Below the pieces are notes generated by a model, which did not search any database, was not told the origin of the DNA, and worked only from the letters and a program-made list of their open reading frames with translations. A program made the translations under genes and the position numbers. From positions 928,001 to 992,000 of the forward strand of contig CM000434.1 in the NCBI GenBank assembly GCA_000165345.1: DNA of 64,000 bases, read 5' to 3'. Each line of letters begins with the position of its first letter. Positions within the stretch are counted from its first letter, which is position 1. Of the stretch, positions 1,117 to 60,122 are shown piece by piece.

Positions 1117-2565
1117 TTTACGCGATTTCTTTAAAAAAATGCAAATTACGACTTTTTCGAAAAAAAAAGCAAAGATATATTATATCTGTATTTTCCCTGT
1201 ACGAGCTTATATCAGTAATCCTGGGGAAAATATAGCTTTTTATTGTTTTGACAAAATCCCCTCACTTAGTTCAATTATATTTGGTGTCTCCAATATTACA
1301 TTATATTCTTTGAATACTTTTTTAAATACAGGATACTAATATATCATTTTCTGTCTCTTATTGAATTAAAATATTAGTTCCTGTCGCCATATTTAAATGT
1401 CTCCCTATAAGACAGCCGCCCATTCTTAATTATGTTACCGCCCAATTCACAGATTTGGTAAAATGGATGCTATTCTTCAGAATTCTTTCCTTTTTTTTTT
1501 AAATCACTCTTTCGCTGCTATGTTCTCATATGTAAAAAAGTTTGTTTTCTTTTTTCTCTGAGACTAAAGATCTTTAGTGTATTTTGTTTAAATAACTTAT
1601 TTCTAAAACTAATTTTGTCTAATCCCCACAGATAATTGCCAAACCGCGCGCGCCAAATGGTGTATTTAGCAAATTTTATTTGTGTGTGAAACATTCAAGA
1701 AAAATATAAAGATAAGTTCAAAAAGACAAAATATAGATGAGAATAATTTGAATTCAAAGCGAGTAATAACATGAAAAAGTTGAGTGGTAAACTCAAAGGA
1801 ATACTGATATTCTTTAAATTCATTGCTATAGCGCTCACTCTTCGTATTTATTCGTGGGTAAAATGAAGATTATAGATAACAAATGCAATTTGAGATTGAA
1901 ATAAACCCTTTCCTTGCTATTTTGTTTCTATCGTTTGAAATTTATTTAATAAAAAATTGTATCAAACTTTTATTAGTAGTTTCTCAACGATACCCTAAAT
2001 GGCGCCAATTTACTCGGTTATACTAAAATACATCTATAATTAATTTCGAATGCCATAAATCTTTTTTATACTCTCTCTTTTGTTGTTTCTCTTTCCTATT
2101 TTAACTTTTTGCTAATGATGACCCACCCAATTATCTTTTATTACTATTTGAGCTCGTTTAAACTAACTAAATAAGAATCTCCTCATTTCTAAAAACTAAA
2201 AATGCACCGCAAAGTTTACCGCGCGCGGCAAGTTTGTTAAAATGCATGCTTCATGCAGAAAAGTACAAGAAGGCATAAAAAAAATAATAAAATAATAAGA
2301 ACTAAATCCAATTTGGAAATAATTAGATTTAGAAGAGGTAGGAAAAAATTGTCACAACTAAATATTTAAGCTGGAATTGAAATCTAAGAATATAAAAACT
2401 AATTCAAATAGTTTTCAGAGATCTAAATTATATTCACAATAACAAAGCTAAAAAGAGTTATTTCTAACTATAAGAGTTGGAGAATTATTAAGAAGACAAG
2501 AATTATTATTTGTAATTAGAAAATATTCTCCCCAAATTTTCCTATAATCTATGTGTGAAATTTAG

Positions 2566-4503
2566 ATGACAGTCAAGAGAATACCAATAACAGAAACAGT
2601 TCTTTTATTACTGGTTCTCTTGATATTATCTCATAATGGAACTTCTGCCCTAAATATCTATTCTGCATTACCTGATCATATTGTAGAATGGCTTAAGAGG
2701 CATATTCTTATCGAGATCAGTAACGTAGATGGTAATATACCTCATGATTACTTGAAAGATGATCACCTAGAATATGCTCAAACTTGCAATTCAATTAATG
2801 GTCCATTTTGTAAATACCTTAATCAAATTTCTGACTCTTCCGAATTTGATCTTGATACAAAAAAATATATCTATGATCATGAAGGAGGTATCGGATATTT
2901 TAATAAGGATTTCTTCATTGGTAAAAGTATATTTAATTTATTCTTAATTCCAAAAATTGCTGATCTAAATGGAGGATATGTATATGATTCAAAAATTAAG
3001 GGTATTTCTAGAACAAGGTCTGATGATACTACTAAAATACAAAAACATTGTAAGCTAACAAGGAAAAGCTTATTCTACTGTATTAAAATTATTATATTGA
3101 GTTATTACAAAAGTTCCATTCAACAATTCACTGGGATTAGTTATATATCTAAATTTATTAATATTTGGAAGGAATTCTTAAGCCTTATAAAAAACAAAAA
3201 GTTATTCAAGCTTATTAATAGAAAAGCAAGTAAGAGAGCTTCCAAAATGATGTATGAAAAAAAAACTCAGATATATACAATCATTGATAATTATAATCTT
3301 CCTCCATTACATTCTGATTTTCTCAATCAAGGAGACAAATTTTTGAAAACAAGTAGAATTAAAGACGATCAAAGTCAATTAAAATATATTAGTGAATTTC
3401 ACAGTAAAAGTACCTATTTTCAAACAAAGTCTAATCTACTTTTTGATGAATCTTTGAGTCAATTTCTAAAAAGTAGATATGTCAGGGTTAATTTTATCAA
3501 TAGTTTAACTTGGATTCTACAGCAAAACAATCCATATTCTGATATATGGCAAAATTGGAGAAATGAAAAGCTTGGAAAACACTATATAATTATTGATCAT
3601 CATGAAAATTACAATTGTGATAAATTCTCTATTTCACCTTTTAATGGTGCTAAGATTTGTTCAAATCTATTATTTGGTGATTTTTATGATCAATTTAGAG
3701 TGATTAGAAAAGCATGGAATGGAGTTTCTTCTATTATGAATTTCTCAATATTGAAACCAAATGTTCATATTTTGCCAAGACAATTTTCAAGTGATGAAAA
3801 TCTTTCTTGTAATTGGGAGGGATTGTGGGAAACTTATTACGACCAAGTTTTAAATATTAAATTACTTTCTAAATTAGGGAAACTTAAGATAATTAATGAA
3901 AAGATTGTTATTTCTCGTCTCCCTATTTCAATAAGTAAAGGCTTTATAAAAAGTCAAACTCATAATAAAATGGATGAATTAAAAACCATTACTATTTCAG
4001 GATATAATCATTCAAAATTATTATGGAAAGCAACCATTCCTATAAATGAATTTATAACAGAAGATAGTAATGAAATCAAATGGATCAATGCTTTAGACTA
4101 TTCAGATAATATTCCATATTCACTTATTAATATTATTCAATTTGAAACAGATCTCACAATAGATAATATAGAACAAAGTATTATAGTAGGTCAATTTGAA
4201 TACAATCTATTGAATCCAATTTTTAATTACGTTCCGAGAACTGGAGAAATCTATGAGAATTTGAATGTAGAAATAGGCCAAGTAGCTGAACTTAGCTTAG
4301 TGGTTTACACTAACAATAAAGAAAAGAGAAGAAATAATAGAATTCCTTCAATATCTATGACAACAATGTATGCCAGCAAAGCATCTCCTTTAGTTTCAAT
4401 GTATAACATAGAGAAAAACAGACTTCAATTAAAAGATAGGATCAATGAAAATACTCTTTGTGTAATTAAGAGAAATATGGCAGAGATCACTAAAGACCAA
4501 TAA
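2566..4503 (+). CDS. Hypothetical secreted protein (645 aa) with a hydrophobic N-terminal signal-peptide-like segment and Asn/Ile/Lys-rich composition
   Basis: Long ORF. The N-terminus (PITETVLLLLVLLILSHNGTSALN) looks like a signal peptide and there are many N-x-S/T sites. No recognisable catalytic motif. Confidence 0.6.
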   Translation: MTVKRIPITETVLLLLVLLILSHNGTSALNIYSALPDHIVEWLKRHILIEISNVDGNIPHDYLKDDHLEYAQTCNSINGPFCKYLNQISDSSEFDLDTKKYIYDHEGGIGYFNKDFFIGKSIFNLFLIPKIADLNGGYVYDSKIKGISRTRSDDTTKIQKHCKLTRKSLFYCIKIIILSYYKSSIQQFTGISYISKFINIWKEFLSLIKNKKLFKLINRKASKRASKMMYEKKTQIYTIIDNYNLPPLHSDFLNQGDKFLKTSRIKDDQSQLKYISEFHSKSTYFQTKSNLLFDESLSQFLKSRYVRVNFINSLTWILQQNNPYSDIWQNWRNEKLGKHYIIIDHHENYNCDKFSISPFNGAKICSNLLFGDFYDQFRVIRKAWNGVSSIMNFSILKPNVHILPRQFSSDENLSCNWEGLWETYYDQVLNIKLLSKLGKLKIINEKIVISRLPISISKGFIKSQTHNKMDELKTITISGYNHSKLLWKATIPINEFITEDSNEIKWINALDYSDNIPYSLINIIQFETDLTIDNIEQSIIVGQFEYNLLNPIFNYVPRTGEIYENLNVEIGQVAELSLVVYTNNKEKRRNNRIPSISMTTMYASKASPLVSMYNIEKNRLQLKDRINENTLCVIKRNMAEITKDQ

Positions 4504-4645
4504 AATAATAAGTTTAGAAGTATTTATTCACTTGGGGGATGAATTAATGGTATTAAGGCGATTAAATATTTATAAAGGGATTATATAAACTTAATAATTT
4601 AGATGTGTAAACTAAGTATTAATTTCTGAATAATTGAGAAATGAT

Positions 4646-5131
4646 TTAATAGTTAATGCATTCATTTATAGTTAGAAATTTAAAATCTTTTGGCAAGATT
4701 GCGACTCCTTTTTCGCTAAAATTACCGAACATATCAATGCTAGTACTAGTACAGAGGTTAAGTAGCTTTTTTGGAGAGTATGGAAAAGTATACAAGGTAC
4801 CCAAAGAATCAGTGAAACTGATTAAGTATTTGTTCTTTTCGTTCAAAGTCTTTTTATTTGGAATCCAAATGACATTATTTACTTTAGTAAAACACTCCCA
4901 AGAGATTCTCATAGTTTTTTCATCTTTTAACTTAGTATGGCATTTAAATATACCAGTTTCTAATTTTGTTGTTTCTCCAGGCTTAATTGGTTTTATATGT
5001 GGAAAGTGAGAATTCCAGTAGTTGTTTTGAATGAGTTGACGTGAGCTTGAGTTTAGGCTTAAGTTTAAGCTTGACCATGCATTTTGCAATTCAAGAAAAA
5101 GCAAGAATAAAAAAGAAGAAAGCTTTTTCAT
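4646..5131 (-). CDS. Small putative secreted protein (161 aa), signal peptide plus 4 Cys
   Basis: Minus ORF begins MKKLSSFLFLLFLELQNAWSS (signal-peptide-like). The overlapping plus-strand ORF 4656..5009 lacks such features. An upstream promoter-motif cluster at 5437-5504 fits a divergent arrangement with the PDE gene. Confidence 0.4.
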   Translation of the reverse strand: MKKLSSFLFLLFLELQNAWSSLNLSLNSSSRQLIQNNYWNSHFPHIKPIKPGETTKLETGIFKCHTKLKDEKTMRISWECFTKVNNVIWIPNKKTLNEKNKYLISFTDSLGTLYTFPYSPKKLLNLCTSTSIDMFGNFSEKGVAILPKDFKFLTINECINY

Positions 5132-5436
5132 TTCTATTATTTTTTCCCGTTTATTTGCTACCTTAAAGATAAAATAATGTTGTTGGTAGGTTGTTTATGT
5201 GTGCAGAAATAATTGACAAATTTATTTTTCTAAGTTACTTTTTCTATCTTTTCTTGTTAAATTGAATAAAGGAGCGATAATTTTTGAATTTTGCTTATTT
5301 TATGAATAAGCTACCCACAGAAAAAAAAAATCCCTTAAATTCCAAAATCCCTCTCTTTCTCAGTCAATTTTTCTTAAGTTTAAATCTTAAAAGAAAACTT
5401 TCGTGATAATTTACTCAACGATATTTGTAAAAAAAA

Positions 5437-5504
5437 CACGTGTTTTTCCCGCCAATTGCATGCAAGTAAAAAAAGTGGCAAATTGCATGCAGTGACATGC
5501 AAGG
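5437..5504. promoter_or_regulatory. Divergent promoter (small secreted gene / PDE): CACGTG, TTTCCCGCCAA (E2F-like), and three (T)GCATGCA(G/A) boxes
   Basis: cacgtg at 5437-5442, tttcccgccaa at 5445-5455, ttgcatgcaag at 5456-5466, ttgcatgcag at 5483-5492, acatgcaagg at 5495-5504. Confidence 0.55.
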
Positions 5505-5707
5505 CAGTGATGTGGGGAAACAGTGTCGGTAATTTACGTGTGAATAATTTTTTGAGAAGGAATTTGTAAGAAAAATTTTTAAAGAGGAAGGAGAGATTTT
5601 GGAGAAAAGTTAGTGGTTGAGATGAGTTGACTGTTGTTTTACTAGAATAATATAATAGAAAGGTGAAAATAAGAAAATTTAATAAAGAGAATTAAGAAAT
5701 AAGATAA

Positions 5708-5754: not shown

Positions 5755-8700
5755 ATGTTTTTAAGAAAGCGAATAACAAGATTAGATAGCAATGAGAAGA
5801 AGTATAGCATAGAAGAAATACTTAATGGAATAACATATGGGAAAATAAAGAAATTTTCTTTAGGATGGAACTTATGGTTGGGAATTACAATATCTTGTAT
5901 TGTACTGATTTGGACAGCAATATATGCCTCAAGATTGTTAAATATTGCGCATAAGTTAAAGAATAATGATAAATTATTTGATGAAATAAAGTTTGATGAA
6001 CAGCTAACAATTTATGGATATAACATAGGAGGTTTAAGTTTATCTATATTAGCTTTTTGTAAGATGGAAAGCAGTCCCACTTTGCACAATATTGGAATAA
6101 GACTAGGATTATCTAATCAGATTTTGAAGCAAAGATATATGCTAAGAAATGCAATAGAAAAATTGAATGAAATAAAATATCCAATAGATAAATTAGATCA
6201 GAAGACAATAATAGAAGAGATGATTGAAAATACAACACAACTTCTAAAAGAGTTAGTACCTTTGCATTTTGCTCTTGAAGATCAGCCAAGTCCAATTTCT
6301 CCAGCTCCTCCTCCATTCTATGTTCCTTATAGAACAAATATTACAGAAAGTGAAATAAGAAATTCTACAGAAAGTGACTCAACTACATTTTTGTCAGCTA
6401 AATATTTATGTAACAACACGGAATATATTTCAGAAACATCAAATTCTCTCAGATATAAGGCATTGAATATAAGTAACCCAGCCAAATTATTTGATTTGCA
6501 TTATCTGAATGCATACTTTAAGCAAAGTGACATAATTAAATTTCAGTCTACAAACAGGATATTGATTTTCCACTTTATTGTCGTTATATTTGTGGTAATT
6601 ATAACTTTGATAGTTTTCTACTTTGGCTCAAATGATCACTTTCAGAAGAAAAATCGACTTAAAATGATGAATATTTGTAAAAAACAAATTATTGATATCT
6701 TTGATCAAATACTTAATGTGGATAAAGCCAATAAGTCTTTAATTCGAGATAAGTTTAAGCCTGTTTCTAAGATATTTGAGAATTTAAAGTATGTATGTGA
6801 TGGAATTGTGATAGAATATGGTAAAGATGCTCAGAATGATATTATATTTTCTTTAGAAACTTTATCAAAGGTTATTCATGAATTTCAAACTTGTGTTGAA
6901 CTAGCTCAAAAGTTTTGTGATATCTTGGATAATGAAATTAATATAAACAAAAAAAACACAAAAGAGCCTATTAAAATACATGAAATTATTGAACAAGACA
7001 TCCAAAATAATAATATTACTGGTAATAGCCACCATTTCTCAGATAAAGTTCCAAATGAAATTTATTTATACTCTGGTAAACAAGAATTTAATGACATTAT
7101 TAACTCAGTGGTTAATGTTTTAAGTCCAAATCTTGGTAAGACTATTTTTTGGGATATTATTCAGGTTGGTGATCATTCACTTATTCCAAATTCTATGGTT
7201 AATACTATTGGAGAAGTTAGTACAGGCGTCAAGCAAGTTATTGATGATAACTGGAATATAATATCTTCTAATCAAGAAGAAATTAGGGAATATTCTTTTC
7301 TGACAATTGATATTTCTCCTTGTATGATCTTTAAGAATATTCATAATGAAAAAAAAGCAGAAGATATCAAAGTTGAGGAAAATAATGAACAATATGAAGT
7401 TAATTGCCTTCTAGAGGCATTGAATTGTGTAACAAGAAGTTTCCATTTATTGATTGCTAAAAGGATGGCAAATTGTGTTTTTGGAGGGGTTTTGATTTGC
7501 CATGGAAATTTTGGAGATCAAGCGAGAGAGTTTCAAGTCAATGAACTTAATTACATTAGAGATATTACTGGAAATACTTTAATTATTCCAATAAAGAAGA
7601 ATCAAAAGAACTTATTAAAAAGTAATTCACTAATAAAAAGCTTGAGTAATATTATTAATCCAGATGTGAAAATATATACAAGTGGTTTAGACTTTAAGGT
7701 TTCAACAATCATAAAAAATATTTCCAAAATCTTAAATATTCCACATTTGGAAATTGAATGTTGGGTTCTACAAGAAAAAAATGATTTAGTTGACTATTTA
7801 TTGGATAAACCAGGATATTGGTTTATTGATACTTCAATCATTCATTTAATCAGTAGTAATTCCAAGTATATCATTAATTTATATAGCCAAAATTACTATT
7901 TGGACAATAACATTGACGTAATACTTTTAACCACAATTGGCAAGGTTGAAGTTATCTCTGAATATAACAATGACATAAATTTGAACCAGTTTTATTATTC
8001 ATTAAAATATTTTCTAAGTGGCAAATCATTTCCAGTTAAACAAAGCCCATCAAAAACTCATATTATACAAGAAAAGAAGATAAATTGTGATTATAGGCAA
8101 ATTATTAGATTATTGAACAGACCAATTTCTGAAATTAATGAGAACTTATTTAGAGATATTGGTAATATGAGCCAAATCTCTGGAAAGGATGATTCATTGA
8201 TTGGAAGCAGTTATATTAAACTGGTTGATATTAGAGAGTTATATTGTAAACAAAAGATGAATAAGAATAGTGGTAAACTTAAAAGTTTTAATGATGAGAA
8301 ATGGGACATTAGAAAACCAGAAATACTTTCCAAGGAATGGTATAATATCGACTTGCTTGAATTAAGTATAGATGAAATTAAAGAAATTGCAGAATTTTTA
8401 ATCTATTACAGATTTAGAGAAGTAATACGTGATAAAGACGATTATGATGATGATGTTTTGTCTTGGCAAATAAACAAAAGAAAAATTAAAAACTTTGTTT
8501 CAGAGTTAATAAAATATTACCATGAAGAAAATCCTTTTCATAATTTTCATCATGCTGTAAGTATTTCCATAACACTAAATAATTGGCTAGACAAACCTTC
8601 TGTGAGACATTATGTAAATTCATTAGAAGCTTATTGTTTAATCATTTCATCTCTTTCACATGATTTGGATCATCCAGGATTAACTAATGATATGATTAAA

Positions 8701-9426: not shown

Positions 9427-9487
9427 TGCATGCATGCAATTATTTATTGAACTCCACGTGTGGCGCCAAACTTGGGTGCATGTAATT
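9427..9487. promoter_or_regulatory. Motif cluster between the PDE 3' end and the 9901 gene: ATGCATGCATGCAAT, CACGTG, TGGCGCCAAA, GTGCATG
   Basis: atgcatgcatgcaat at 9427-9440, cacgtg at 9455-9460, tggcgccaaa at 9461-9470, gtgcatgtaat at 9477-9487, about 420 bp upstream of the ATG at 9901. Confidence 0.5.
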
Positions 9488-13067: not shown

Positions 13068-16000
13068 CTAAGGTATATAATTATAGAAATGTTCATTTTC
13101 TGAATCAATCTCTATCAAATCTCTTTGTATTAAAGAATTCAAAATCTTCAAGATCTCTCCGTTGATTATCTTATTGTTCTGATGAATGCTATCAACGTTA
13201 TCATCTTTATTTAAAGAAAACTCCTTCATTACTACTTGTATTAAATTAAGAAGTGATGACTTTTGTTTATGTTTTAAGAATTTCATTATTATGGCCTCTA
13301 TACGGTACTTATTATTTTTAAACAAAGAAATGTAGTTATTACTCTTTAAGCTATCATAATCAAAGCTATATTGCTCCTCTCTTCCATTACATCCTTTTTC
13401 GTTTCTACTCATATTCTCATCCAAATAATCCTTTTCTTTATAAATATAGTCCAAACAAAAGTCTGAACTAAAGTCTATTGTATTCAAACCTGAAGCATAG
13501 TTCATCAAATATTCCTTTGATTGATCAAACTCTCCAGATCCTACATAATTTTTTATTATTGTATCAAAATTTATATTATACTCAATCTTTACATTATCTT
13601 TATTTTCCTCATGTAATATTAGAAGTGGCGGTAACTCCAATTCTTTTTCTTCTGCCACTTCTACCATTTCTCCTTCCAATCCCACTCTAGCCACCAAAAG
13701 TCTAATTGGATCAAATAGCCTACCAATATTGTCTTTAAGAGCTAAATATTGTTCTCTTCTTAATTCCACAAATATTTTCTCTTCATTAAAACATAATAAT
13801 AATATTCCTTGCTGTAAAGTTAAAATCATCCTCAGACGTTGGCGCCCCAATGCATGCATGCAATAATCCATTATACAAGTACCCAAAAAATAAGACCAAG
13901 TCAAAGTTCTGGAGTAAATTTTAGTATAAAATTGTTGGTAAAGTTGCATTTCATTGTGGATATGTTGAATATCTATATTACCATTGTACTTGGAAAACAA
14001 TTCACACTCCAAAAAATTCAATGGTAAACAACTTTCTTCATTTATAATACCGGTGTTTTTGGTGCCATCTTCTCCATTTTTATAATTTCTCAATGGCCAG
14101 TTTGTTGAAGATAACACAATTAAAGAGAATGGAACTTCATATTTGATATTTTTAAGAACAATTTCCTTCTCAAGCTCCTCATTTTCTTGAGATTTTTGGA
14201 TTTCAGAAGGAACACCACTAGAAATTATAAAATCACCAACCTCGTCATTTTCAGCTAATCCTACATTATCCAAGGATGAACTCTCATACTTCATTTTAAG
14301 ATCTTCTGATTTAAGCCAAAAGTGGATCTCTTCGCAAATTGTTGTAGATAAATTTTTTGTAATTCTCTTTTTTCTGTGAGAAAAATTACCAAATTCGATT
14401 TTAAGATTCTCATCTTTTCTTAAACAAGAAGATTCTGAATTAGCATCTTCAACAATCTTAACGCTTGGCGCCATTTGGTGCCCAATAGACTCCAATAGAT
14501 AGAATTTAAAGATGGACTGACTGGCAAACCAGTCCTTAATTACAAAGTTTGATTTACTAATAAAAGTATAACCACATTCAGTGTAAAGTAACTTCATCAA
14601 ATAGATCTCATAAATATCAACCTTGTTCATTAACATCTCTATATTACTTCCCAAAGCTGATGATAAACTCCAGCCAAGGTAATACTTAAGGATTTCTCCT
14701 TGATTACTTCCAAAACCAATTCTGTTGTTTGTAAAATAGTATACTATTCTTTGAGATAATAGCTGATGATAGTAATTCTGGAAATAATCCTTATAGTTAC
14801 TGCATTTAAATAAATAAATAATGCTCTCAAAGTATTCTCTAGTCTTAATATCACTACTATTACTGGTTCCCTCTAGAGAATTCCCACTAGAGGAATTATT
14901 GACATTCCAACAAATTATGTCCAAATTAGCTCTAGAAAGTCTTTTTTGGGTACCACCAGATCTTAAATCTACATTTTCCCCTTTATGGAAGTTATAGCTT
15001 CTAACCAATATGTGGTGAATTAATATTGAAAATCCTCTCATTATCTCTTTGGCTAAGGTATCGTCACAATTCAAGATCTGTACCCAGGCCTCATTTATAC
15101 ACAAATTACGAATTTTCTCATCCTCAATAAAAGATCTCTTCCAGATCCTCTCAATCTTTAAATAAAACTCCAACAAACCTTTTATATTCTGCAAATAAGT
15201 CTCGAATATAGAGTTTGTCTTTCTGTGATCCTTCATTTCACTTGGATCTAAAAATCGATACTTGGGTAGTTGCTTAACTAAATCGAGACCTTGTTCAATT
15301 ATACACTTCTCTAGCTCTTTTCTAAATAGTTGTTCTTTGTTCTTTCTTTTGAATACATTGAAAAGGAATGTCAAGATCTCAAATTCTTCATTTGAAACAA
15401 GTAACGTAAGGCAGCTAAGTCCTTGATTACTTTTGGAGTAGTGATGAATGATATCATCAGAAATCAAAACGTCTAAAATGTTCAGCTCCACGTTAAAGAC
15501 AAATAAATCCCAGCTAGTTTCATAATCTTCGTTAAATTGATCAAAGCTGGATATATCTGTCGGAGAAGTGTCTCTAAATGCATTCAATGGGATCTTCTGA
15601 TCTTGGTTGATCAGAGATAAAAGAGAGGTATCAAGCTTTGAACTTGAGCTTCCAAAATTACTGGTATAAAGCAAATCTCTATTATTATAAGTAACTAAAA
15701 GACTTCTCTCCAATTCTAAAGCTTCTCTGACAAAGTTGACAAAATCCTTAAAGCCTAAAGACTTCTTTTCTTCAAATATCTTCAAGTAATACCTTCTCAG
15801 AATCTCCAAGTAAAGTTTCTTCAGGTCTTGGTTTATAATTTGTAGTTCAACAAACATCTCAAAGATCTTTTTGAGCATAAAAAAAGGCTTTTCATATTTT
15901 CCTCCAACTGCTTCCTTTAATCTCTCAGTAACAGAAATTTGACTAGAGTAACTGAAGTCTCTAATTTCATTTATAGATATAAAAACCGATAGTAATAATC

Positions 16001-16682: not shown

Positions 16683-16874
16683 TGAATTTCAGTAATATGG
16701 CCAATTTTGAAAGAAAAAACCTCAAAAAATCCCAGTACAGATCGATTCCCTTGAACAGCTTGAATTTTAGAAGTTATAAAGCATATCCATCCTTATTAAG
16801 CTACTGAGGTTTCCAGTTTTTACAGAAATGCAGTTTTCTGTCAAGAAATGAAAATTCTGATAAAATTTTTTGAA

Positions 16875-16912
16875 CACGTGTAATTAAAAAAATGACAATG
16901 TCAGGCGCCAAA
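16875..16912. promoter_or_regulatory. Divergent promoter region (cullin gene on minus / 17227 gene on plus) with CACGTG and a GGCGCCAAA E2F-like box
   Basis: cacgtg at 16875-16880 and ggcgccaaa at 16904-16912, inside the 545-bp interval between two divergently oriented start codons. Confidence 0.5.
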
Positions 16913-17226
16913 GTTTCCCCACATAATAAAAAAAAAGCAATGCAGAAACAAAAAAAAAAGGAAAAAAAGGAAAGGATTACGAATATTAATAATAAAAGTG
17001 AAGGAGAAGATATTAAAATGCGGACGGGGTAGTTTTTAGATAGGAAGGCAAGGAATCTAGTAGTTTCTATTAGCTTTAATACATTGAAGAAGAGTGATAA
17101 CCAAGATTCCCGGATAGATAGTAAGAAATCTCAGAGAAGGAATAAAGTAGAATTGAAAATTAGCCAAGAAAAAAGAACTGAATACTGAAATAGGTACATT
17201 TAAGAGAAGGATAAAAAGAATTCTTT

Positions 17227-19635: not shown

Positions 19636-20165
19636 TGAATTGTTAAATTACAATTCTATTCTTACATACTTTACCTCCAACAAACCTTTCCTTATAATTT
19701 AAATATATATTCTCTATCATTAGTTGTTATTTTATAATTTGTTTCTATATATTATTGTCCACATAATTATTTAAATTACGTGTTATATTCCTATACCGGT
19801 TATACCATCCACATGCACTTGCAAAAATTTGCATTGAAAGGAAAGTGCATGTGCATGTAGGCAGAGTTTGAAAGTTAAAAAAAAAAAAAATGAGTAAAAT
19901 TTAGGAATTAGTAATGAATATAAATAAAGAAAGGTTAATGACATTAAATTTAATTAAAATGAAGTTGTCAGATAGAATAATAAATCAAATTAATTTTACT
20001 TTGGATTAATGGTACTTATTCTTTGCTTTTTGTTTTTGAGGAACTTGAATCTCCTAATAGAAATCAGAACAAACAGTTATAGAAGGATCAATAATGCAAA
20101 TGTTAAAGATGAAAAAATAATAGAGAATATATTTAATCCATTTAAAATTATATTCTCTAATTAAT

Positions 20166-20555: not shown

Positions 20556-20757
20556 ACTTCAACTTTGCAAAAGTAATTAAAATATATCAAATAAAAGAGA
20601 ACAAAAGTTAATTTATAAGCAAGTATTGCAATAATATTTAAATTATTTATTAAAAATATTATTGTTACAAATTTTGTTCTCAAAATTATTTAAAATAACT
20701 CCTGTTAAGATCCAAACTGAGCGCTGAAATATTTACATTGAAGTTTTTATATGAATT

Positions 20758-22902
20758 TTGGGATTAAAAATTAAATTTTTATTAAAAAAAAATCAACAAA
20801 AAGTACACAGCCTGCAGCTTTTGAATATGAGACTGGTCAGAGCAGTTAAACATATTGGCCAAAATGCAGAAAAGTTCAGGTTTGATCTAAGAGTTGAGAA
20901 TCTTCATATTTTTCTACACGAACAGTGTGAAATTACTATTGATTGGATAAGAGGCCCAAAGAGGATTTCTGGAAAAGAAGCTGTATCATGCGTGAATGGA
21001 AGTATAATACATCCTTTCTACCAGCCAATGGTCTTGATTGCAACACTATTCCAAAAATCCTCTCAGAAACAAGGAAAAACTCAAGCAAATTCTGAAACAT
21101 TCTTACCCAAGGATTCTAGACTTGTTATATACGGTAAATTTAAAGATAATCCCTTGGTTTCATTGATTGGAGAGGTCCCTTTAGAGCTTTCAAGCTTTGC
21201 AAACAGCTATAGACTAGCAGGTTATGAAACTTCTGAGCCGGTAAAAGTTGAAATTCCATTAATTAAATGCTCAGACCCAAATTCATATATTGAGATTTAT
21301 ATCTCATGTTCTTCTTTAGGCCAAGTTTCTGAGGGATTTGATGATACAGCTTCTATGATGTCCGGATTTACCACAGTTTATACCGAGATTTCTGACAATC
21401 CAATACAAAACTTAAATGAATTTAAAAATAACTTTGTTAGGGTTAATGAATTATCTTCTGTTCATAACAATGGAATTACTCAAAAAGAATTTCTTGGCAA
21501 ACATTCTGATAAAAAAAAGGATAACAAATTATCATGTGAAAGTACATTAGGAATTCCAATGTTTTCAATCAAAGAAGATATTGAGGTTATTAATGAAACA
21601 GTTAGAGAGGCGGAAGAGTTAACCGAAACTGCTACTATTGTTGATGTTGAAGTTAATAATGAAAAGTTGGAATCTCAGATCCATGAGATTCGTCAGGGTA
21701 AAGATGAATCAGAAACAAAAAATAATGGATTAAGCCAAATTAATAATGAGGGTAGTCAAAGAGTTACTCCAAGTTATTACCCAAATCCAATGATTAAGAT
21801 GCCAGGCCAATCCATGGAAAACTTTAAGGCACTTGATGTTGCTTCAGATCAGGGAATTGCAAAAGTTTCATCTCCTCAGTCATCAACATCTTATGAGATA
21901 CTTACACAAAGGTTATACATGGAACAGGAGGAAAATAAAAGAAGGATTCATGAATATAACATGGAGATTAACTCTTTAAAACAACAACTACAGATATATT
22001 CAGAGCAGGAAAAGAGTTGGAAGCAGAGGGAAGCAGATTTGATGAATGAAATCATGATTTTGAGGAATACTGAGGACTTGAGTGATAAGCCTGACAATAA
22101 AAATGGTATTGAAAACAATAAATGCACAAAGGTTGTAGGCTTGGATGATTATTGCCTATTACAACAGGAAGTTAGTGAGCTTACTGGAATTAGAGATGAG
22201 TTGAGACGTCTAAGAGAATCCGATAGATTTAAATATGAAAAGTATATTGCACAATTAGAAAATCAAATTCAAGATATTACTAAACAACTTGAAGTTTATA
22301 AAAAGAATGGCCGAATTCAGGATGAAGTTGAGGAAGAAATCTTCTCCATTCCAAAGCATCCAACCTTTTTTGCTACTGCTAATAGTAATATTTCAGATTT
22401 TACTACAGTTAATAAGACTAATAAGTTGAATGCTTCTATTGGAGATGATGTTGCAACTGGAAATCATAGTATAGATATACCTGCGGATCATAACCAGAAT
22501 TTGGAACGAGGTTCATCGAACCATAATCTCTCTTACGGATTTGAAGAAATTGAAAGAGAATTAATATCTACTAAGCTTGCCTTGGCACAGACAGAAACTA
22601 ACTATCAAGTTGAAGTCAATAATTTGAGGAGTAGAATCGAAAAGCAAAGGAAGCAGCTACTTTCTTATAGTTCATATGTTGGCAATTTGGAAGTTATTAA
22701 TGCTGATTTGAAATATGGAGCAAGAAAGCACAAGGATTTAAAGTCTCTAAATGAAGAGTTGGATGAAAGCTCTATTGAGAATCAAAATAAGCAGACCTTT
22801 ATTAACTCACAGGACAGCGATGGTAGTAGCAAGACAAAGAGTGGGGGAAATATGAATACAATAAATTCGTATTGGAAGACTTTCAAGCAGAGAATAAGAT
22901 GA
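20758..22902 (+). CDS. N-terminal C2-like (NT-C2) domain protein with a long C-terminal coiled coil (714 aa)
   Basis: The N-terminal approximately 160 aa (FRFDLRVENLHIFLHEQCEITIDWIRGPKRISGKEAV...RLVIYGKFKDNPLVSLIGEVPLELSSFANS) fit the NT-C2 / EEIG1-EHBP1-type pattern. The C-terminal half is a heptad-rich coiled coil (LQIYSEQEKSWKQREADLMNEIMILRN...). Confidence 0.55.
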   Translation: MGLKIKFLLKKNQQKVHSLQLLNMRLVRAVKHIGQNAEKFRFDLRVENLHIFLHEQCEITIDWIRGPKRISGKEAVSCVNGSIIHPFYQPMVLIATLFQKSSQKQGKTQANSETFLPKDSRLVIYGKFKDNPLVSLIGEVPLELSSFANSYRLAGYETSEPVKVEIPLIKCSDPNSYIEIYISCSSLGQVSEGFDDTASMMSGFTTVYTEISDNPIQNLNEFKNNFVRVNELSSVHNNGITQKEFLGKHSDKKKDNKLSCESTLGIPMFSIKEDIEVINETVREAEELTETATIVDVEVNNEKLESQIHEIRQGKDESETKNNGLSQINNEGSQRVTPSYYPNPMIKMPGQSMENFKALDVASDQGIAKVSSPQSSTSYEILTQRLYMEQEENKRRIHEYNMEINSLKQQLQIYSEQEKSWKQREADLMNEIMILRNTEDLSDKPDNKNGIENNKCTKVVGLDDYCLLQQEVSELTGIRDELRRLRESDRFKYEKYIAQLENQIQDITKQLEVYKKNGRIQDEVEEEIFSIPKHPTFFATANSNISDFTTVNKTNKLNASIGDDVATGNHSIDIPADHNQNLERGSSNHNLSYGFEEIERELISTKLALAQTETNYQVEVNNLRSRIEKQRKQLLSYSSYVGNLEVINADLKYGARKHKDLKSLNEELDESSIENQNKQTFINSQDSDGSSKTKSGGNMNTINSYWKTFKQRIR

Positions 22903-38068: not shown

Positions 38069-38277
38069 TTTCTTCCCTCGCTACCAACATCAATTCCTTG
38101 CTTCTCAATCTTGTGTGTTCTTACTTGTTTTTATATCAAGAGAAGACTTACAAATCCAACAATTTATATATTATTCACTTGCTTTTGCTCAATTTAATTT
38201 CCTGCCACCTTATTCAGATTTTTCTCTTCAAATCACTGTTTTCATAAATACCCCTATAATATGTGGTTGTTTTCATT

Positions 38278-38692: not shown

Positions 38693-41600
38693 TTACCACA
38701 AGTCTACATCAATATCCAGATCAGTAAGTGCCACATTTGTATCATCAGCTTGGTTGGAAACCTCTTGTAAGAATGCTGGAGTTTGTACTTCTCCTTCATT
38801 CGCAAACCAGCTTGCCATTTCATCAAGTTTACTGGTTTTGACAGCATTCGCCTTTGGCGCCATATTTACTGTCAATTTTTGCTTTTGTAATGTAGGTCTG
38901 GATTCTGTTGTTCCTCGTTTAGGTTGGGAAACTGATTTCTTTTCTGATAGTTTAAGCTTGACTGTGCTTGCGCTCTTTTCTCTCTTTGCGAGATTTTCTT
39001 GCTTTTGTTTTAATCTTCGTTCTTCATCCAACTTTGTTTTACGTACGAGATCTACTGATGAAATGAAATTCCATAATACACGGAAATAATCTGGCCAAAC
39101 AATTCTTTGAATCGTATTTTGCGGTTCTCCCAAGTATAGTGCCATCTTTTCTAGATTTTCTTTAACACTTTTCATAGTTGCTACTAAATCTTCAATTCTA
39201 GGCTCAGTATCGGAAACAAAGTCTGCTAGAATCTTAGCAATGGGATCCTTTTCTCCCATAGGGCCGGCTCTCTCATTACTTTTCTGAGCTGATTTCATTG
39301 TATCTGTGACCTTATTTAAAGATCCATTCAGTGATTGAATTTCACCTTCAATAGCACCTAAATCGCATTTGGCTGCTTTCTCTACTAAAGCCAATGGCTC
39401 TGCCAAAGAAAGCAATTCTGGCTTATCTCTCCAAATAATCTCTGTGATATATTGAAGCAAAGTTTTAATAGGTTTAGTACTCGAACGAACTTCACATAAC
39501 TTTGATAGTGAACTCATTCTAAAACCTTTAGCTTCTCCCTTTTCTGTATTAAGATTCAAAACATTACCAACTGAAAGAATTATAGAAAATACTTTCTTAA
39601 GCTTTGAATTTGTCTTAATTTCGTTGCAAACTGTAATAATCTCTTGTAAAGGCGTCATTAATTCATTAAAGGAATTGTCAAACGAAAGAATAAACAGCTG
39701 AGCGTTCAAACGAGCGCCAAACATTGGAATACCAATCATTGCAGCTATAAATTGTTCAGGCTTATCCAACTGAGTCAAGTCACCTCCTGCATCAATATAC
39801 TCTTTTACGATTGCAAACTCTTCTGGAGTTGGGGTCATTAAAATCAAAGCTTCTGTAGCTTCTGTATCCAAAATCTTCTTATCAAGATCCAATATAGCAT
39901 CACGCAATTGTTGGAATGTATATGCACTGAACTTTGATAATGCAATACTTATATTGTATGCTCTCTTTGAGTCTGGTAAAATTTGCATGACCTTTGGCTT
40001 CTTTGTCGCCTCTGTCGCCTTCTTTGGTTTTGCTGATTCGATACCAAATACTTCCTCCAAATTTCCGAAATCCAACTTGATTGGTTCTTTAATATCCCAA
40101 ATTGTACCTTGAATATTCTCAACCTTATCCCAATGTAACTTCTTTGTCTTCGATTCTGGACCACTTGGCTTACTTCCTGTCTTTCCTCCAAATTTCCCTG
40201 CCTTTCCTTTTGGGGGTCCTTTTCCTGTTGGGGGTCCTTTCCCACCTGGTGGTCCTTTTCCCCCTGGAGGACCCTTTCCTCCTGGAGGTCCTTTCCCTTT
40301 CCCTGGTGGGCCCTTTCCTTTTGCTGGCGGCGTGCCCTTTGCCGGTGGCGCGCCCTTTGCCGGTGGCGCGCCCTTTGCTTCTGCTGGTTCTGCCTTTGGT
40401 TCTGTAGGAGCACCTTCTTTTGCTTGCGGTGGCGGAGATTTGTTAATAATGTTGTCCATTTTCCCAATACCATCCAGCAATCCAGATAATGCCTTTCCTG
40501 ACTTTACACCTGCTCCTACAATACCTGTGTATACCCCTCCATCCGAAGGTTTGTATTGAATCATTGAGCTAATAAGGGCGCCAACTCCGCTACCTTTAAG
40601 AAGTTCTATCACACCCTGTGAATCAGGAGAAGGAAGTCCCCATTTTGCTGATGCTGTAAGAGCAATTCTAGTTGAAGCGCATACAAATGGCTCAAGATCG
40701 ATCACATAAGGCAACTTTGTTACTACGTTACCCCCATCATCTAAAAATGAAATGCATGCAAGTCTTTCATTACCAGATTCTTCTACATCAGGTTTTGCTC
40801 CTTTAATCTTTGCTAAAATATCATCTGGAGGAAGTTGTTGATCGATACCTACTATCTGAGTCTGAGTTACTTTAACTTGTTTAGCCTCCTCCTTATCTTT
40901 ATTTCTTTGTCTAACTAAAGGAATCAATGCATTTGGAATCCATATTGATTCTTTGAAATAAGCCTTCATTTCTTCCTTACCTGCATAATCTACTAATGGC
41001 AAATAAAATGGTAAACCTGTACTCTCATCTTTTTCTATTTGAGTTAACAACTTCCCTTCTGGAGTTATACAAGGTTCTGGAATCTCCCATTTCTCCAAAA
41101 CTGTCTGAGCTTCTTCATTTATCATCATTGTCACTGACTGCTCTCCCATAACTGGGAATCCTCTTGTTAACTTTGGAATGTTTATTATAGGTAACTTCTT
41201 TCTTTCTGTCTTACTAAATGGAGGAAGAGAAAGCATTGTAGAAACTCCTAGATAGTCTGGACCTGTAATTCTTACTTTCAAGTGAGGTAAAATTGCTGTT
41301 GAACTCACTGTCATACTCTGAAATGACTCTCCATGTAGTGCTCTGATTCTTGAAGTGCATAAAAGTTGTTGAGTTTGGTTATTTGAAAATGGGGTACTTC
41401 TATTTAACCCTCTCAAATTCTTTGGATCAAATAAAAAAGTCTCCAATTGTCGATACCTTAATTGATCAATACTTGGACAAATTGGACTTGCTAATAATGG
41501 TGATTCCTCATACATTATTCTTGTTAATTTACTTGATTTTCCTAAGGTATCGGTAATTATTTCTTTTAAAGATCTCTCTGCTCTTGATTCTAGTGATTCT

Positions 41601-44286: not shown

Positions 44287-45310
44287 TTATCTAACAAGTT
44301 CCTTTAAAAAATGTTCGTAGTTAAATCCTCCATCATTAGATGGGAAATCCCTAATTAAAAAAAATAGTAAAAATGTTAAAAGCAGGTTGGGGGAGGCTGT
44401 TTGCATGCATTTACTTGCATGGCAAATTATCACTATACCGGCGTACATGCAAGATGTACAAATAGGCGGCATATGGCACGTATTGAAATATATGAACTTA
44501 CTTTAAAAGTATTTCAATTTCTTTATTGGTTAAAACTTCTCCTGTATTAGTTAATAGAGAAGTCAGCTGCTGGCTAGTGATTGATCCAGAGTTCTGTAAT
44601 ATTGGAAGAAATTGATGAATTAGAAATAATATTATAAATAGAAAATGGAGAAGTGGCACAAAGTATATTGAACTTACATTTGAGTCATACGATCTGAAAA
44701 ATTGAACTAGATTTTCAAAAGTGTCTTCTGGATGTACAATAGAATCACAAAATTTTACAAAAGCTTGTAAATCACATGTTTGACCAACACTTGCGACAAA
44801 TCTCTGGACTTCGCTTTCAGATGGCGCTAATCCCTAAAATTAGGAATAAAAGTGATGTTTAATTAATAATAAAAATGGAGTGGAAAACTGACCATTCTTC
44901 TAACAATTTCTCCAATTTTATTGGTTTGAATGGTTGGACCTCCTCCCTATAGTTTAAAAGAGAATAATGGTATTAAAAGATGATATTAAAGATTGCTTGG
45001 GATTAGGAGTTGGGGTTAATATGGCGGAGTAATGCATTTATTTCTCCATTTTACATATCCCAAGGATGACTTGGTAAAAGCTTAACTTACAGCAGCATCT
45101 CTGAATGAAAATTCAATTCTCTCTTTGGACTATAAATATGAAAAAAGAATTAATTTATTTGCAAAAAAAAAAAAAATTAAGTAATGATAATTAATAGTTA
45201 GTCATTTCTATGAGATTCAAGTTTCTTCCCTAGTTTCTCAAAATTCACTAAAGGAAGAAAAAATGGATGGAGCGTAACAATCAAAAGAACTTACAATCTT
45301 GAAAGGTGGC
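44287..45310 (-). CDS. Calmodulin-like / myosin light-chain-like EF-hand protein. Six exons on the minus strand: 45293..45310, 45089..45127, 44893..44946, 44678..44833, 44502..44593, 44287..44350 (140 aa).
   Basis: Hand-spliced translation: MPPFKI|SKERIEFSFRDAA|GGGPTIQTNKIGEIVRRM|GLAPSESEVQRFVASVGQTCDLQAFVKFCDSIVHPEDTFENLVQFFRSYDSN|NSGSITSQQLTSLLTNTGEVLTNKEIEILLK|DFPSNDGGFNYEHFLKELVR*. It aligns with calmodulin ([40 protein letters not shown]...). Donors are GTAAGT x4 and GTCAGT x1, acceptors TAG/CAG, and the frame is maintained across all junctions. Only the last exon appears in the ORF track (44287..44472). Confidence 0.7.
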
Positions 45311-45522: not shown

Positions 45523-45558
45523 AAGGCGGGACTTTAGGGCGGGCAAATGTGCATGTTG
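45523..45558. promoter_or_regulatory. Divergent promoter between the two EF-hand genes: two GGCGGG boxes plus GTGCATG
   Basis: aaaggcgggac at 45523-45533 and tttagggcgggcaaatgtgcatgttg at 45534-45559, between the minus-strand ATG at 45310 and the plus-strand ATG at 45878. Confidence 0.5.
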
Positions 45559-46966: not shown

Positions 46967-47080
46967 CTTGGAATATTTTAGCATTTTTTTCTTCATAAAT
47001 CTAAAACCTACTTATCCCTTTTTCAAAATCAATATAATCCAATTTTCCATTTTCCCCTTTTCTTACTTATAATTAAATTC

Positions 47081-47152
47081 TGCATGCATGCAATTAATAT
47101 TTTTTTTTAAAATTTGTGCAAATATTAACATATACCGGAGATTAGGCGCCAA
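47081..47152. promoter_or_regulatory. Promoter motif cluster upstream of the 47265 gene: TGCATGCATGCAAT, TATACCGG, GGCGCCAA
   Basis: tgcatgcatgcaat at 47081-47094, tataccgg at 47131-47138, ggcgccaa at 47145-47152, about 110-180 bp upstream of the ATG. Confidence 0.5.
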
Positions 47153-47264
47153 CTTATTTAATTTTTCTAATTAAATTTCTTGAATATTCAAAGAATATTG
47201 GGGTTTGAAAGTAAAAAATTAAGTTATCTAAGAACAAATAGTAATTATTTGTTCTAGATATAAA

Positions 47265-51126: not shown

Positions 51127-51155
51127 TTGCATGTGCCCGCCCAAAATGGCCCGCC
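51127..51155. promoter_or_regulatory. Divergent UBC2 / RPL10 promoter: TGCATGTG plus tandem E2F-like GC boxes (CCCGCCCAAAATGGCCCGCC)
   Basis: ttgcatgtgcccgcccaaaatggcccgcc at 51127-51155, lying between UBC2 (minus, ATG at 50875) and RPL10 (plus, ATG at 51594). Confidence 0.5.
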
Positions 51156-51593
51156 TAAAGACGAGTATATAAAAATGTCTCAATTATAGATGATTAAGAT
51201 TAATTAATATTGAATGAGAGAAAGGTTGGTTGTTAAATAATAAAAAAAAGGTGAATAAAAAATAAAAAGACGAGACAACATAAATAATAAATAAAGGAAA
51301 TAATAGAAATTAATTAGGGTATATATATAGTGATTAAAAGAAGTGTATAGAGAACAAATAATTAAAGAATACACAAATAAATATAAATATAAATAAAAAA
51401 TAAGTTGATATTTATATAGGGTAAGGAATAAGTACTAAATAACATTTGAAATAGGAAATATATAGAAAATAAATTATACGTGTCGATTTTCGACTAAATT
51501 ACGAAACGTAAAATTTAAGGGAAAAAATAGCAATAGATCATCCAAAGTATTAATTATTATTTCTTTTAATTGATATTATTTGGAAGAGAAACA

Positions 51594-52262: not shown

Positions 52263-54062
52263 GCAGTAGGGAGGTGATTGAATGAAGGAAATATATATTT
52301 ACTTTGTGGATTATTGGCAGCTGTTATCTTTATAACTCGCCATATGTCCCATTGTTAAGATATTTATTATTTTCAACATTTATTTCATTAATATCCAAGC
52401 ATAGAAGTAATATTAATAATTCTTATTACAATGTTTATAACAGTTTTTTGTTTTATTTCATTTCCGTGCCTTTTTTTGTTAGTTTCACAAGTGGGAGAAA
52501 ATGTATTTTAACTTAAATAATGTAATGGGTAAAAAATTTTTGGTTTTGTTATTCTATTTATCAAGAACAAACAAATCTCTTATTTTTCCCTCCATTGCTA
52601 ATAATATTTCCTTTGGGGGAAAATTCTCTAAAATTTTGATCCAAATGAATCTCCAATAGCACTGATATGACTGTCAATACTAGAAATTTGTGCAAAAATC
52701 TCATTCAAATATGCATGCTTAGATTTTTTGTTGACACGTGTGGCGGTAAAAGCATGCAAATTTGTAAATACGTGTTTTGCAGATTCGCCGTACCGGTATT
52801 GCCAGTGTGAATTTTAACCACATAAACATGAATATGTGCATGCACAATTAAATTAGTTGTGAGGAACTAATGCTAAATTTTTACAAACAATTAAAATAAT
52901 TAAAAATTTTAGAATTTGAAATTCAATAGTTTTACCTTCAATCTCAAGAAGGAATATGCAATATATATATATGCATGTAAATATATATTAAAATAAACAA
53001 GAATCAATGAAATGACAAACTTAATTCAAATTTTCATTTATTCAATAAGCTATTATTTAATGAAAAATTGCAATTTTTAAGTCATTTATGTTCAGAAAAA
53101 TTAGGCGCCAATGCATTCCTTCATAATATTTCCTATTCCACCCCCCACATTACATTTGTTTTACTTGTAATGCTATTTGTGCAAGAAGTATAAAGCATAT
53201 ACAATTTTTGGAAATAAGTCAAAATTAAGAAAGGAATAAAATTTGGGATTTGAATTATTCAAAACTTTAAGAGCACGATTTGTGAACAATTTGGTATTCA
53301 AAAAGAAAAAAAAACAAGTAAACTTCAGAATATAGGTCACCCAGAGACAAAAAATATAGTTCTATTATTTTCATTAATATAAAAAAGCGACATACCAAAA
53401 TATAAATGGAGTTTATATTATTATTATTATTGTTATCGGGTCTCAAATAAAAAAATAAACTTTACTTCAAAATCTAATTTTGTATTAATATTTAATTTAT
53501 TTGTATTGGCTATAAACTGATCCAAGCAATAATCTCAGGAAGATATAAATAAATACCAATTAATACAGAAGGCAATAATAATAATAATAATTTTTAACTT
53601 TCTAATAGTTTATTCATACTTTTACACGCAAATTTATATTTTCAGATTCTGGAATTATTGCAAGTTTTTCTGTCGCAGAATTTGGCGGGCATAATTTCAA
53701 GATAATTCTTATGGTTGATCATAATTAAAAATATTTTTTCATTTTTGCCAACAAATTTGTTGGCTGAAGAAATAATAAAAGATAAACATTAAATTAATCT
53801 AAAGGAAAAATTGGAATTACGAAGTTTTTTTTTCTAGGGTGGAATTAAGCTATAATTATTAAGAAGATCTAAAACACACAAAACATAAGATAATTAGAGA
53901 TCTGAATGAATAAGTTCTCATTTATATTTGCTCATATATAATATATCTTAATAAAAGATTATAATATATGAACATTGTTATATTTACACACATTTATCAC
54001 ATAAATTGCAAATTTCCCAAGTATTTTAATATCTTTGGGAATTCTACTTATAACTTACTTTC

Positions 54063-59541: not shown

Positions 59542-59768
59542 ATAATTTTAACTTCAATTTATCTTCTCAAGTGGGTTTTTTTCTTTCTCTAAAGAGAGAA
59601 AACCAACTCTCCAATTTTCTTCCCTCTAGAATGTTAGTTTTCCAATTGGATTCGTAAAAATTTCTAAAATTTCTACAATTTATCAAAGTTATTCTTTTTC
59701 AGACAAAAATTGTAATTATTTGTCTTTCGTTATATTATTAATTAATTCTGCTAATTTTTGCTTACCCA

Positions 59769-59820
59769 CATGTGCATGTGTTCATTTGGGCGCCAACGAC
59801 ATTTTGTTAATACCGGTATT
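59769..59820. promoter_or_regulatory. Divergent kinesin-5 / TBC promoter: CATGTGCATGTG, TTTGGGCGCCAAC, AATACCGGTATTG
   Basis: catgtgcatgtg at 59769-59780, tttgggcgccaac at 59785-59797, ataccggtatt at 59810-59820, between the minus-strand ATG at 59541 and the plus-strand ATG at 60123. Confidence 0.5.
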
Positions 59821-60122
59821 GAAATTTGTAATAATACTGCTTCTTTTTGCCCCCCATTTCCTAGAAGCTTTCAAATGAGGGGCGCACACGCAATAAAAAT
59901 GGTTGGTTGGTTGTTGGGGGGCAGACTGACAATTTAGCAAGGCATCATCTAATAAGGCAAATTACACGTTGGAAGTGAATTTTGTGATTTGTAATTAATA
60001 ATAAATTTTTTCAAAAATAAGAAAAAACAAGGGAGATGCTGTTTTAATTGCAAAGAAAAGGTCAATTTATGCTAGATTAAAATAATTGAGTGTGTGCATG
60101 TTGGAAGAGAAGTTAATTAGGA

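Follow-up and report, generated by a model that had tools for sequence, protein, structure and literature searches.

We suggest that the short motifs recurring in the intergenic DNA of a 64,000-nucleotide stretch of Cryptosporidium parvum chromosome 6 (contig CM000434.1, positions 928,001 to 992,000; the whole stretch is called the window below) are very probably cis-regulatory elements of RNA polymerase II promoters, arranged in compact composite modules. The modules, approximately 30-130 bp long, would usually be found 100-550 bp before the start codon and would often be common to divergent gene pairs. The (T)GGCGCCAA / GGCGGGAA boxes would be sites for the parasite E2F/DP winged-helix heterodimers and, because they precede nearly every gene, would serve as a general element of promoter definition and open chromatin, not as a cell-cycle-specific switch, and the (T)GCATGCA boxes would be ApiAP2 sites (AP2_1 family; cgd2_3490, cgd1_3520 and others). 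Stage-specific modulation is probably added by the ApiAP2 factors in combination with G-boxes (G.GGGG) and with two elements that are less well characterised, ACGTGT/CACGTG and ACCGGTAT. We infer cooperative binding from the fixed spacing, and also that general and modulatory elements divide the work between them. Computed here were the enrichment, its compartment specificity, the clustering of the motifs and the genus-wide purifying selection; the binding proteins and the marking in the assay for transposase-accessible chromatin with sequencing (ATAC-seq) were taken from the literature.

Expected motif counts were obtained from dinucleotide-preserving shuffles, 200 per compartment, done separately for the coding (48,035 bp) and non-coding (15,965 bp) DNA of a curated 25-gene map, with E2F-like boxes counted as SGCGCS or GGCGGG. 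We detected 27 E2F-like boxes in non-coding DNA (0.95 expected) and 10 in coding DNA (2.2 expected). The corresponding observed and expected values were 16 (1.41) and 9 (4.6) for GCATGC, 13 (0.22) and 5 (0.63) for TGCATGCA, and 4 (0.30) and 1 (1.4) for CACGTG; over the whole window TGCATGCA occurs 18 times (0.93 expected) and GGCGCC 15 times (0.56 expected). The enrichment over the shuffles was 11- to 59-fold and was greatest in the most AT-rich compartment. Despite the lower non-coding GC content, the non-coding density exceeded the coding density approximately 8-fold for E2F-like boxes (1.69/kb versus 0.21/kb), 5-fold for GCATGC, 8-fold for TGCATGCA and 12-fold for CACGTG. A preliminary description of the window, made from the sequence alone, had stated that its motif claim would fall if the frequencies were those expected from composition or if the density was equal inside coding regions; the shuffles and the 5- to 12-fold higher non-coding density showed neither. 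Nine of ten control hexamer palindromes were without enrichment, and the exception, GCGCGC (3 versus 0.10), is itself an E2F core. Motif discovery by an unbiased scan of 6-, 7- and 8-mers (order-2 Markov) ranked GCATGCA first (P about 1e-31), with GGCGCCA(A) and GGCGGG(A) also at the head, beside poly-A and AT repeats. The E2F-like boxes (9 versus 0.17 expected) and GCATGC (5 versus 0.30) were also enriched in 3.9 kb of independent flanking C. parvum non-coding DNA used as a hold-out, where CACGTG gave 0 versus 0.08 expected, a count too small to inform. The sequences listed in the preliminary description are present at 36 of 36 coordinates, with two weak GCATGC entries, 33541-33546 (TGCATG only) and 59769-59780 (CATGTGCATGTG).

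Syntenic loci were compared for the right third of the window in C. meleagridis, C. ubiquitum, C. canis, C. felis, C. bovis and C. serpentis, and for the left third in C. ubiquitum, C. canis, C. felis and C. bovis. The non-coding excess of E2F-like and GCATGC motifs over coding DNA was found in every species retrieved. The alignments gave phylogenetic footprints, with invariant boxes amid diverged flanks, even across a shift from 26% to 45% GC. The modules keep their order and spacing in up to seven species, the GC-rich C. canis and C. felis and the gastric C. serpentis among them. The C. canis and C. felis loci have approximately 51% GC in coding and 43-45% in intergenic DNA, versus 34% and 26% in C. 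parvum, with the synteny and the promoter boxes kept; because the boxes are kept despite the much higher GC content, these loci are especially useful for footprinting. Among the motif positions, 49 of 166 were invariant in five well-diverged species; for the remaining intergenic positions the figure was 362 of 5373 (odds ratio 5.8). The Fisher P overstates the significance of this contrast, the alignment positions being non-independent. A listed motif is present in seven of the ten most conserved 12-bp intergenic blocks, and most of the motif copies in coding regions change at synonymous sites.

The claim that the motifs stand in nearly every promoter was borne out: of the 17 promoter-bearing intervals, 16 have one motif or more, versus none of seven short 3'/3' intervals, and the E2F-like box is present in 15 of the 17 and in none of the seven, a contrast that is no more than suggestive once interval length is counted. 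The 5' interval of 22 of the 25 genes, including PDE, calcineurin, RPL10 and the EF-hand proteins, contains an E2F-like box, and the distance from the box to the nearest start codon has a median of 350 bp (range 102-959 bp). Motifs of different type are clustered: the median nearest-neighbour distance is 28 bp, whereas random placement confined to the same intervals gives 95 bp (0 of 2000 permutations as low as the observed value). GCGCCAA points toward the gene in six of seven single-promoter cases, a weak and non-significant trend; an orientation bias (6:1) was dropped, the sample being small and the literature reporting no pattern.

Several points weigh against the promoter-element reading. 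Convergent DNA amounts to just 1.66 kb (10.9% of interval DNA), and the length-aware test of the promoter-versus-convergent contrast is weak (approximately p=0.06 for the three motifs of the preliminary description, an estimate, and p=0.16 for all four classes). Modules stand in at least two nominally convergent intervals, at 19778-19860 and at positions 7045-7075 of the flanking locus L012. The latter lies approximately 400 bp left of the window start, between a gene of 157 amino acids and the EF-1alpha 3' end, and combines TGCATGCATGC with an E2F-like box, so the motifs are not confined strictly to annotated 5' regions. A strict promoter-only location, true in the window for the three motifs, was rejected in view of the non-significant length-aware test and of these exceptions. 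The TMEM208 / NT-C2 divergent promoter (20556-20826) has no motif in C. parvum, C. ubiquitum or C. bovis. No AP2 motifs were reported in sporozoite open chromatin (bioRxiv 10.1101/2025.01.17.633476), so the AP2_1 sites may work at other stages only. Which proteins go with which boxes is taken from the literature, in which we found no report of direct C. parvum E2F/DP binding to these boxes, and most regulatory components are without functional validation according to a review (PMC12246861).

The boxes belong to described motif families. The GC boxes, rightly called E2F-like in the preliminary description, are the published motif 3, DTTGSCGCCH, and motif 4, TTTGGCGGGAAV (PMC3734150): 19 of 19 listed boxes fit the family core ([C/G]GCGC[G/C] or GGCGGG with T/A-rich flanks), and 10 of 10 non-coding GGCGCC sites read GGCGCCAA, which matches DTTGSCGCCH. 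In comparison with motifs 3 and 4 of Oberstaller et al. (5'-[A/T][C/G]GCGC[G/C][A/T]-3', TTTGGCGGGAA), the sequence, organism, chromosome and near-ubiquity are the same and nothing substantive differs; we add that single sites and pairs approximately 13 bp apart are kept as far as C. serpentis. According to PMC3734150, the E2F-like and AP2_1 motifs were first seen over-represented in chromosome 6 non-coding DNA by Bankier et al. 2003, and the same motif set is tabulated in a 2025 review (PMC12246861). C. parvum encodes 2-3 E2F and 2 DP proteins (PMC3734150; bioRxiv 10.1101/2025.01.17.633476; PMC12246861); the E2F genes include cgd1_1560 and cgd6_1430, and the window itself carries no E2F or DP gene.

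The (T)GCATGCA boxes are the published AP2_1 motif, BGCATGCAH, a well-documented ApiAP2 site (comparison with PMC3734150), with 11 of 13 listed entries fitting the core (BGCATGCAH / TGCATGCA) and two fitting it partially. The AP2 domains of cgd2_3490 and cgd1_3520 bind TGCATGCA in vitro in protein-binding microarrays (PMC4117751). The window sites share with AP2_1, which is also bound by the Plasmodium PF14_0633 / AP2-Sp orthologues, an identical core, are palindromic, non-coding-enriched and often doubled as TGCATGCATGCA, whereas in several modules the kept form is GTGCATG(T), like the published motifs 7 and 8 (ACATGY, HTGCACH), and not the full palindrome. The designation of TGCATGCA as G-box-like had to be given up: the Cryptosporidium G-box is 5'-G.GGGG-3' (DTGTGGGG / KKGRGGGGRR), bound by the ApiAP2 protein cgd8_810 (PMC4117751; PMC3734150; PMC12246861), and TGCATGCA, an ApiAP2 site, does not match it. 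True G-boxes, not listed in the preliminary description, number 18 in non-coding DNA versus 3.7 expected; this Cryptosporidium/Plasmodium G-box, distinct from TGCATGCA, is kept in at least one module (TCCCCACA at approximately 16917, cullin / hyp800).

The E2F-like boxes could alternatively form a dedicated cell-cycle E2F/DP regulon targeting Ndc80, kinesin-5, cullin and UBC. E2F controls S-phase and mitotic genes in animals and plants. The statement of the preliminary description that these cell-cycle genes all carry the box is true for the four of them, and the E2F and DP transcripts peak early in asexual development (PMC3734150; bioRxiv 10.1101/2025.01.17.633476). The argument cannot discriminate, however, because almost every gene in the window has the box, with RPL10, calcineurin, PDE and the EF-hand genes among the 22 of 25. 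The E2F-like motifs are the most abundant of the published upstream motifs, follow no particular pattern of expression and are over-represented genome-wide in 163 of 200 expression clusters (Oberstaller et al. 2013, PMC3734150), and no Rb orthologue is known in apicomplexans (PMC3734150). We found the box upstream of all functional classes, and kinesin-5 and cullin belong to separate published expression clusters (32 and 92). A cell-cycle regulon is improbable on this evidence, and E2F/DP sites as general promoter elements, in a genus that has lost Rb and most other canonical factors, are the more economical reading.

Slightly less credit still is given to the proposal that the boxes act mainly via chromatin or replication (nucleosome exclusion, replication origins) and not through sequence-specific activators. 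The boxes are near-ubiquitous and coincide with sporozoite open chromatin, E2F being the top motif of sporozoite ATAC-seq peaks and poly-T the second (bioRxiv 10.1101/2025.01.17.633476), and many boxes are flanked by poly-A/T tracts. The conserved positions, however, are the exact E2F/AP2 cores and not general GC content, and cognate DNA-binding proteins exist, such as the AP2 domains that bind TGCATGCA (PMC4117751). The proposal is moreover compatible with E2F/DP opening chromatin, which makes it a refinement of the promoter-element reading and not an alternative to it.

That the motifs arose as by-products of composition or mutation, or are left over from dispersed repeats or mobile elements, and have no regulatory role, is hardly credible: the coding copies do exceed the shuffle expectation (E2F-like boxes as above) and a 24-nt AATGCATGCATGCAAT.. 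string recurs three times (family D7), but the enrichment peaks in the most AT-rich compartment, the control palindromes are unenriched, the motif flanks are unrelated, no repeat family covers the modules, and boxes that stay invariant while their flanks diverge, even through the change in GC content, effectively refute it. A compositional artefact was ruled out by the shuffles, the control palindromes and the cross-species footprints, and a dispersed-repeat or mobile-element origin was rejected, the only shared string being the motif itself with an AT-rich flank.

Beyond the two known families, we tentatively propose that ACGTGT/CACGTG and (A)TACCGGTA(T) could be two further conserved elements, and that all four are wired in fixed-order, fixed-spacing modules predating the intestinal/gastric split, a possibility to which we give somewhat less than even chances. 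If true, the fixed modules would point to cooperative binding of E2F/DP with ApiAP2 and further factors. CACGTG as the third motif of the preliminary description is enriched in the window but was under-described, the enriched core being ACGTGT/ACACGT (16 in non-coding DNA versus 1.5 expected), which lies within 0-30 bp of an E2F box; CACGTGT (7 versus 0.29) survives Bonferroni correction. In the hold-out flanking DNA, ACGTGT occurs 4 times versus 0.36 expected (0 of 500 shuffles as high). CACGTG is kept at two of three testable sites, 5436 (to C. canis) and 16874 (to C. bovis), and that at 9455 is present only in C. parvum. The core is the same as in the plant G-box CACGTG and the abscisic acid-responsive element (ABRE) ACGTGT, which are bound by bZIP or bHLH proteins, a likeness by sequence only; no Cryptosporidium factor binding ACGTGT/CACGTG is known in the literature searched.

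The palindrome ACCGGTA(T), also seen as (A)TACCGGTA(T) and ACCGGTAT, occurs 9 times in non-coding DNA versus 0.24 expected and is kept in the kinesin-5 / RabGAP and other modules; its hold-out support is weak (half-site 2 versus 0.24 expected, full ACCGGT 0). Both elements are absent from the 25 motifs of PMC3734150 and from the text of PMC4117751, a comparison that did not cover the oligomers of Bankier et al. 2003 and leaves the priority uncertain. Searches for CACGTG, ACGTGT and ACCGGT with Cryptosporidium gave PCR primers and unrelated papers only. The motif ATACCGGTAT was reported upstream of oomycete genes (PMC10031896), and this oomycete promoter motif, ATACCGGTAT / GTACCGGTA (Plasmopara halstedii streme-5; Phytophthora motif-9, Seidl et al.), is the same palindrome as ACCGGTA(T). 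The oomycetes belong to a different phylum and any link is speculative; if true, the shared palindrome could mark an ancient factor-site pair of stramenopiles and alveolates.

The E2F-like and AP2_1 promoter motifs are already known for C. parvum, and their observation here is confirmed and robust; the extra motifs and the genus-wide module architecture are modestly new, incremental additions. The rediscovery changes nothing in itself, and its value is that of a positive control, the organism having been inferred in the preliminary description from the promoter motifs alone. Cryptosporidium ranks among the leading causes of diarrhoea in children, and experimental validation of its gene regulation is poor. 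The delimited genus-conserved modules (for instance 59766-59822 and 45523-45556) and the two candidate elements may aid the design of reporters and promoter mutations.

The taxonomic inference of the preliminary description proved correct, since six open reading frame (ORF) products are exact C. parvum Iowa II proteins (the matches include PDE EAZ51539, calcineurin CAD98461, anamorsin DRE2_CRYPI and CAD98450, equal to CPHLJ_6g4090), borne on contigs of chromosome size (approximately 1.3 Mb), and both window ends map within CP029785.1, C. parvum chromosome 6. Pfam annotation and ORF inspection gave 25 genes, from EF-1alpha, cut at the window start, to a last gene at 61827-63296, with locus numbers from approximately cgd6_3990 to approximately cgd6_4230; cgd6_4040 as cullin and cgd6_4210 as kinesin are confirmed in a published table. 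The GC content is 31.9% for the whole window, 33.8% for coding and 26.1% for non-coding DNA. The tRNA and Rfam scans of the window gave no match, ruling out that its GC-rich islands are RNA genes.

At the left of the window, the EF1a / cgd6_4000 divergent interval carries the E2F-like box CCGCGCGCGCCAAA (1643-1657); the E2F-like box (T)GGCGCCAA lies at 2001-2006 and a module of E2F-like CCGCGCGCGG and GCATGC at 2219-2258. The SP161 / PDE divergent promoter has the module ACACGTGT - TTTCCCGCCAA - TTGCATGCAA - TTGCATGCA - ACGTGT (5436-5542), of which approximately 60 bp are near-identical in C. parvum, C. ubiquitum and C. canis, with the E2F and AP2 boxes also present in C. felis and C. bovis. 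Upstream of cgd6_4030, in TGCATGCATGCA - CACGTGT - GGCGCCAAA - GTGCATG (9427-9482), conservation covers the E2F and GCATG boxes. The divergent promoter between cullin and hyp800 contains ACACGTGT - AGGCGCCAAA - TCCCCACA, the last a G-box on the other strand (16874-16925); this module is kept in C. ubiquitum and C. bovis, and in C. felis its first box is CACGCG. The hydrolase / cgd6_4090 interval (24955-25289) has TTGCATGCAA at 24955, TTGCATGCAAACACCGGTAT at 25205-25225 and TATACCGG at 25283, with the GCATG-CCGGTAT pair kept in C. ubiquitum and C. bovis, and the E2F-like GGCGCCAAAA (25611-25620) lies 125 bp upstream of the cgd6_4090 ATG. Two sites precede hyp1698, the E2F-like CGCGGGAAA, which fits TTTSSCGC (27165-27178), and GTGCATG followed by the E2F-like CCCGCC (27664-27681).

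Upstream of hyp157 we detected ACACGT-TGGGCGCCAAG-CTGCATG, GGCGCCAATG, GGCGGGAAAG and GTACCGGTAA (33523-33754). The anamorsin promoter has the module TTGGCGCC - ACCGGTATTG - GTGCATGCAACACGTAATA (35811-35900) and the Ndc80 promoter TTCCCGCCCAAAA - TGTGGGG (G-box) - GCATGCAACACGTAATA (38276-38337), with TTGCATGCAAAG - GGCGGGAAATTT nearby at 38576-38628. Both of these neighbouring minus-strand genes, anamorsin (35884-35900) and Ndc80 (38321-38337), have upstream of them the same 17-mer, GCATGCAACACGTAATA, in which ACACGT is fused to an AP2_1 box; a fixed composite site is suggested. The pair TTGCATGCAT - TATACCGG (44396-44442) stands upstream of formin, adjoining the 3' end of the EF-hand gene. 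In the EF-hand / MTIP-like divergent promoter, the module GGCGGGA-N6-GGCGGG-N5-GTGCATGTT (45523-45556) keeps its order and spacing, GGCGGGA-N6-GGCGGG-N5-(G)TGCATGTT upstream of the MTIP-like gene, in seven of seven species, including the gastric C. serpentis. The module upstream of cgd6_4170, TGCATGCATGCAAT - ATATACCGGAG - TTAGGCGCCAAC (47081-47152), includes a CGG...TTAGGCGCC block invariant in five species.

The UBC / RPL10 divergent promoter carries the paired E2F-like GCCCGCCCAAAATGGCCCGCC (51135-51155), kept in five intestinal-clade species. In the same interval AAGACGAGACAAC (51269-51281) is among the most conserved intergenic blocks in five species; it matches no main motif and may be related to the published motif 10, RMGACG. 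The richest module, ATGCATGC - ACACGTGTGGCGG - GCATGCAAA - ACGTGT - GTACCGGTATTG - GTGCATGCAC (52711-52845), lies 1.2-1.35 kb upstream of the calcineurin ATG, and the RPL10 / calcineurin interval (52263-54062) also has the E2F-like boxes GGCGCCAA (53104-53111) and TTTGGCGGG (53681-53689). This interval is 1.5-1.8 kb long in six intestinal-clade species and 365 bp in C. serpentis. A conserved block in it at approximately 53637-53650 (TTATATTTTCAG|AT) resembles a 3' splice site; a 5' intron or an upstream exon may thus belong to calcineurin, which would explain the distance of the richest module from the annotated ATG. The kinesin-5 / RabGAP divergent promoter contains ACCCACATGTGCATGTG - TTTGGGCGCCAAC - ATACCGGTATTGAAA (59766-59822), and its layout ACCCACATGTGCATGTG-TTTGGGCGCCAAC-...-ATACCGGTATTG, near-invariant in six species, is the most conserved intergenic block found. 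The last E2F-like box, TTCCCGCC (61690-61698), lies 137 bp upstream of the cgd6_4230 ATG.

The cluster ACGTGT - TATACCGGTTATACC - CACATGCAC - GTGCATGTGCATG (19778-19860) is located in the nominally 3'/3' interval of hyp800 and TMEM208, with identical spacing in C. ubiquitum. The interval may contain an unannotated transcript or promoter, because its 530 bp is long for two 3' untranslated regions (UTRs).

A composite module, ACGT-TGGCGCC-CCAATGCATGCATGCAAT (sequence ACGTTGGCGCCCCAATGCATGCATGCAAT), lies inside the cullin coding sequence (cgd6_4040, minus strand) at 13836-13866, 773 bp from the stop codon. Aligned by codon, the genes of C. parvum, C. ubiquitum and C. canis all preserve the nucleotides TGCATGCATGC and GGCGCCAACGT, with the synonymous and neighbouring codon positions held; the amino acids between the kept strings vary and a rare CGC Arg codon is retained, which suggests DNA-level constraint. 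The site is possibly a candidate promoter, either internal or for an antisense long non-coding RNA (lncRNA). E2F and AP2_1 motifs were reported upstream of antisense lncRNAs, and the published lncRNAs are biased to gene 3' ends with E2F or AP2_1 motifs upstream (PMC7840661). The coding copy at 49298 (hyp1000) is ambiguous as an intragenic promoter. Four of the ten coding E2F-like hits belong to a tandem duplication within the proline-rich region of the formin coding sequence (CCGGTGGCGCGCCCTTTG x2, 40347-40372); these copies inflate the E2F-like count for coding DNA and probably have no relation to regulation.

Two further strings near the MTIP-like gene are invariant in five species, TTTTAGCA directly after its stop codon (46967-46985) and TTAAG.TATCTAAGA.CAAATAG just upstream of the next ATG (47225-47250). 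The first is a candidate element for 3'-end processing, the second a candidate 5'-UTR or initiator element.

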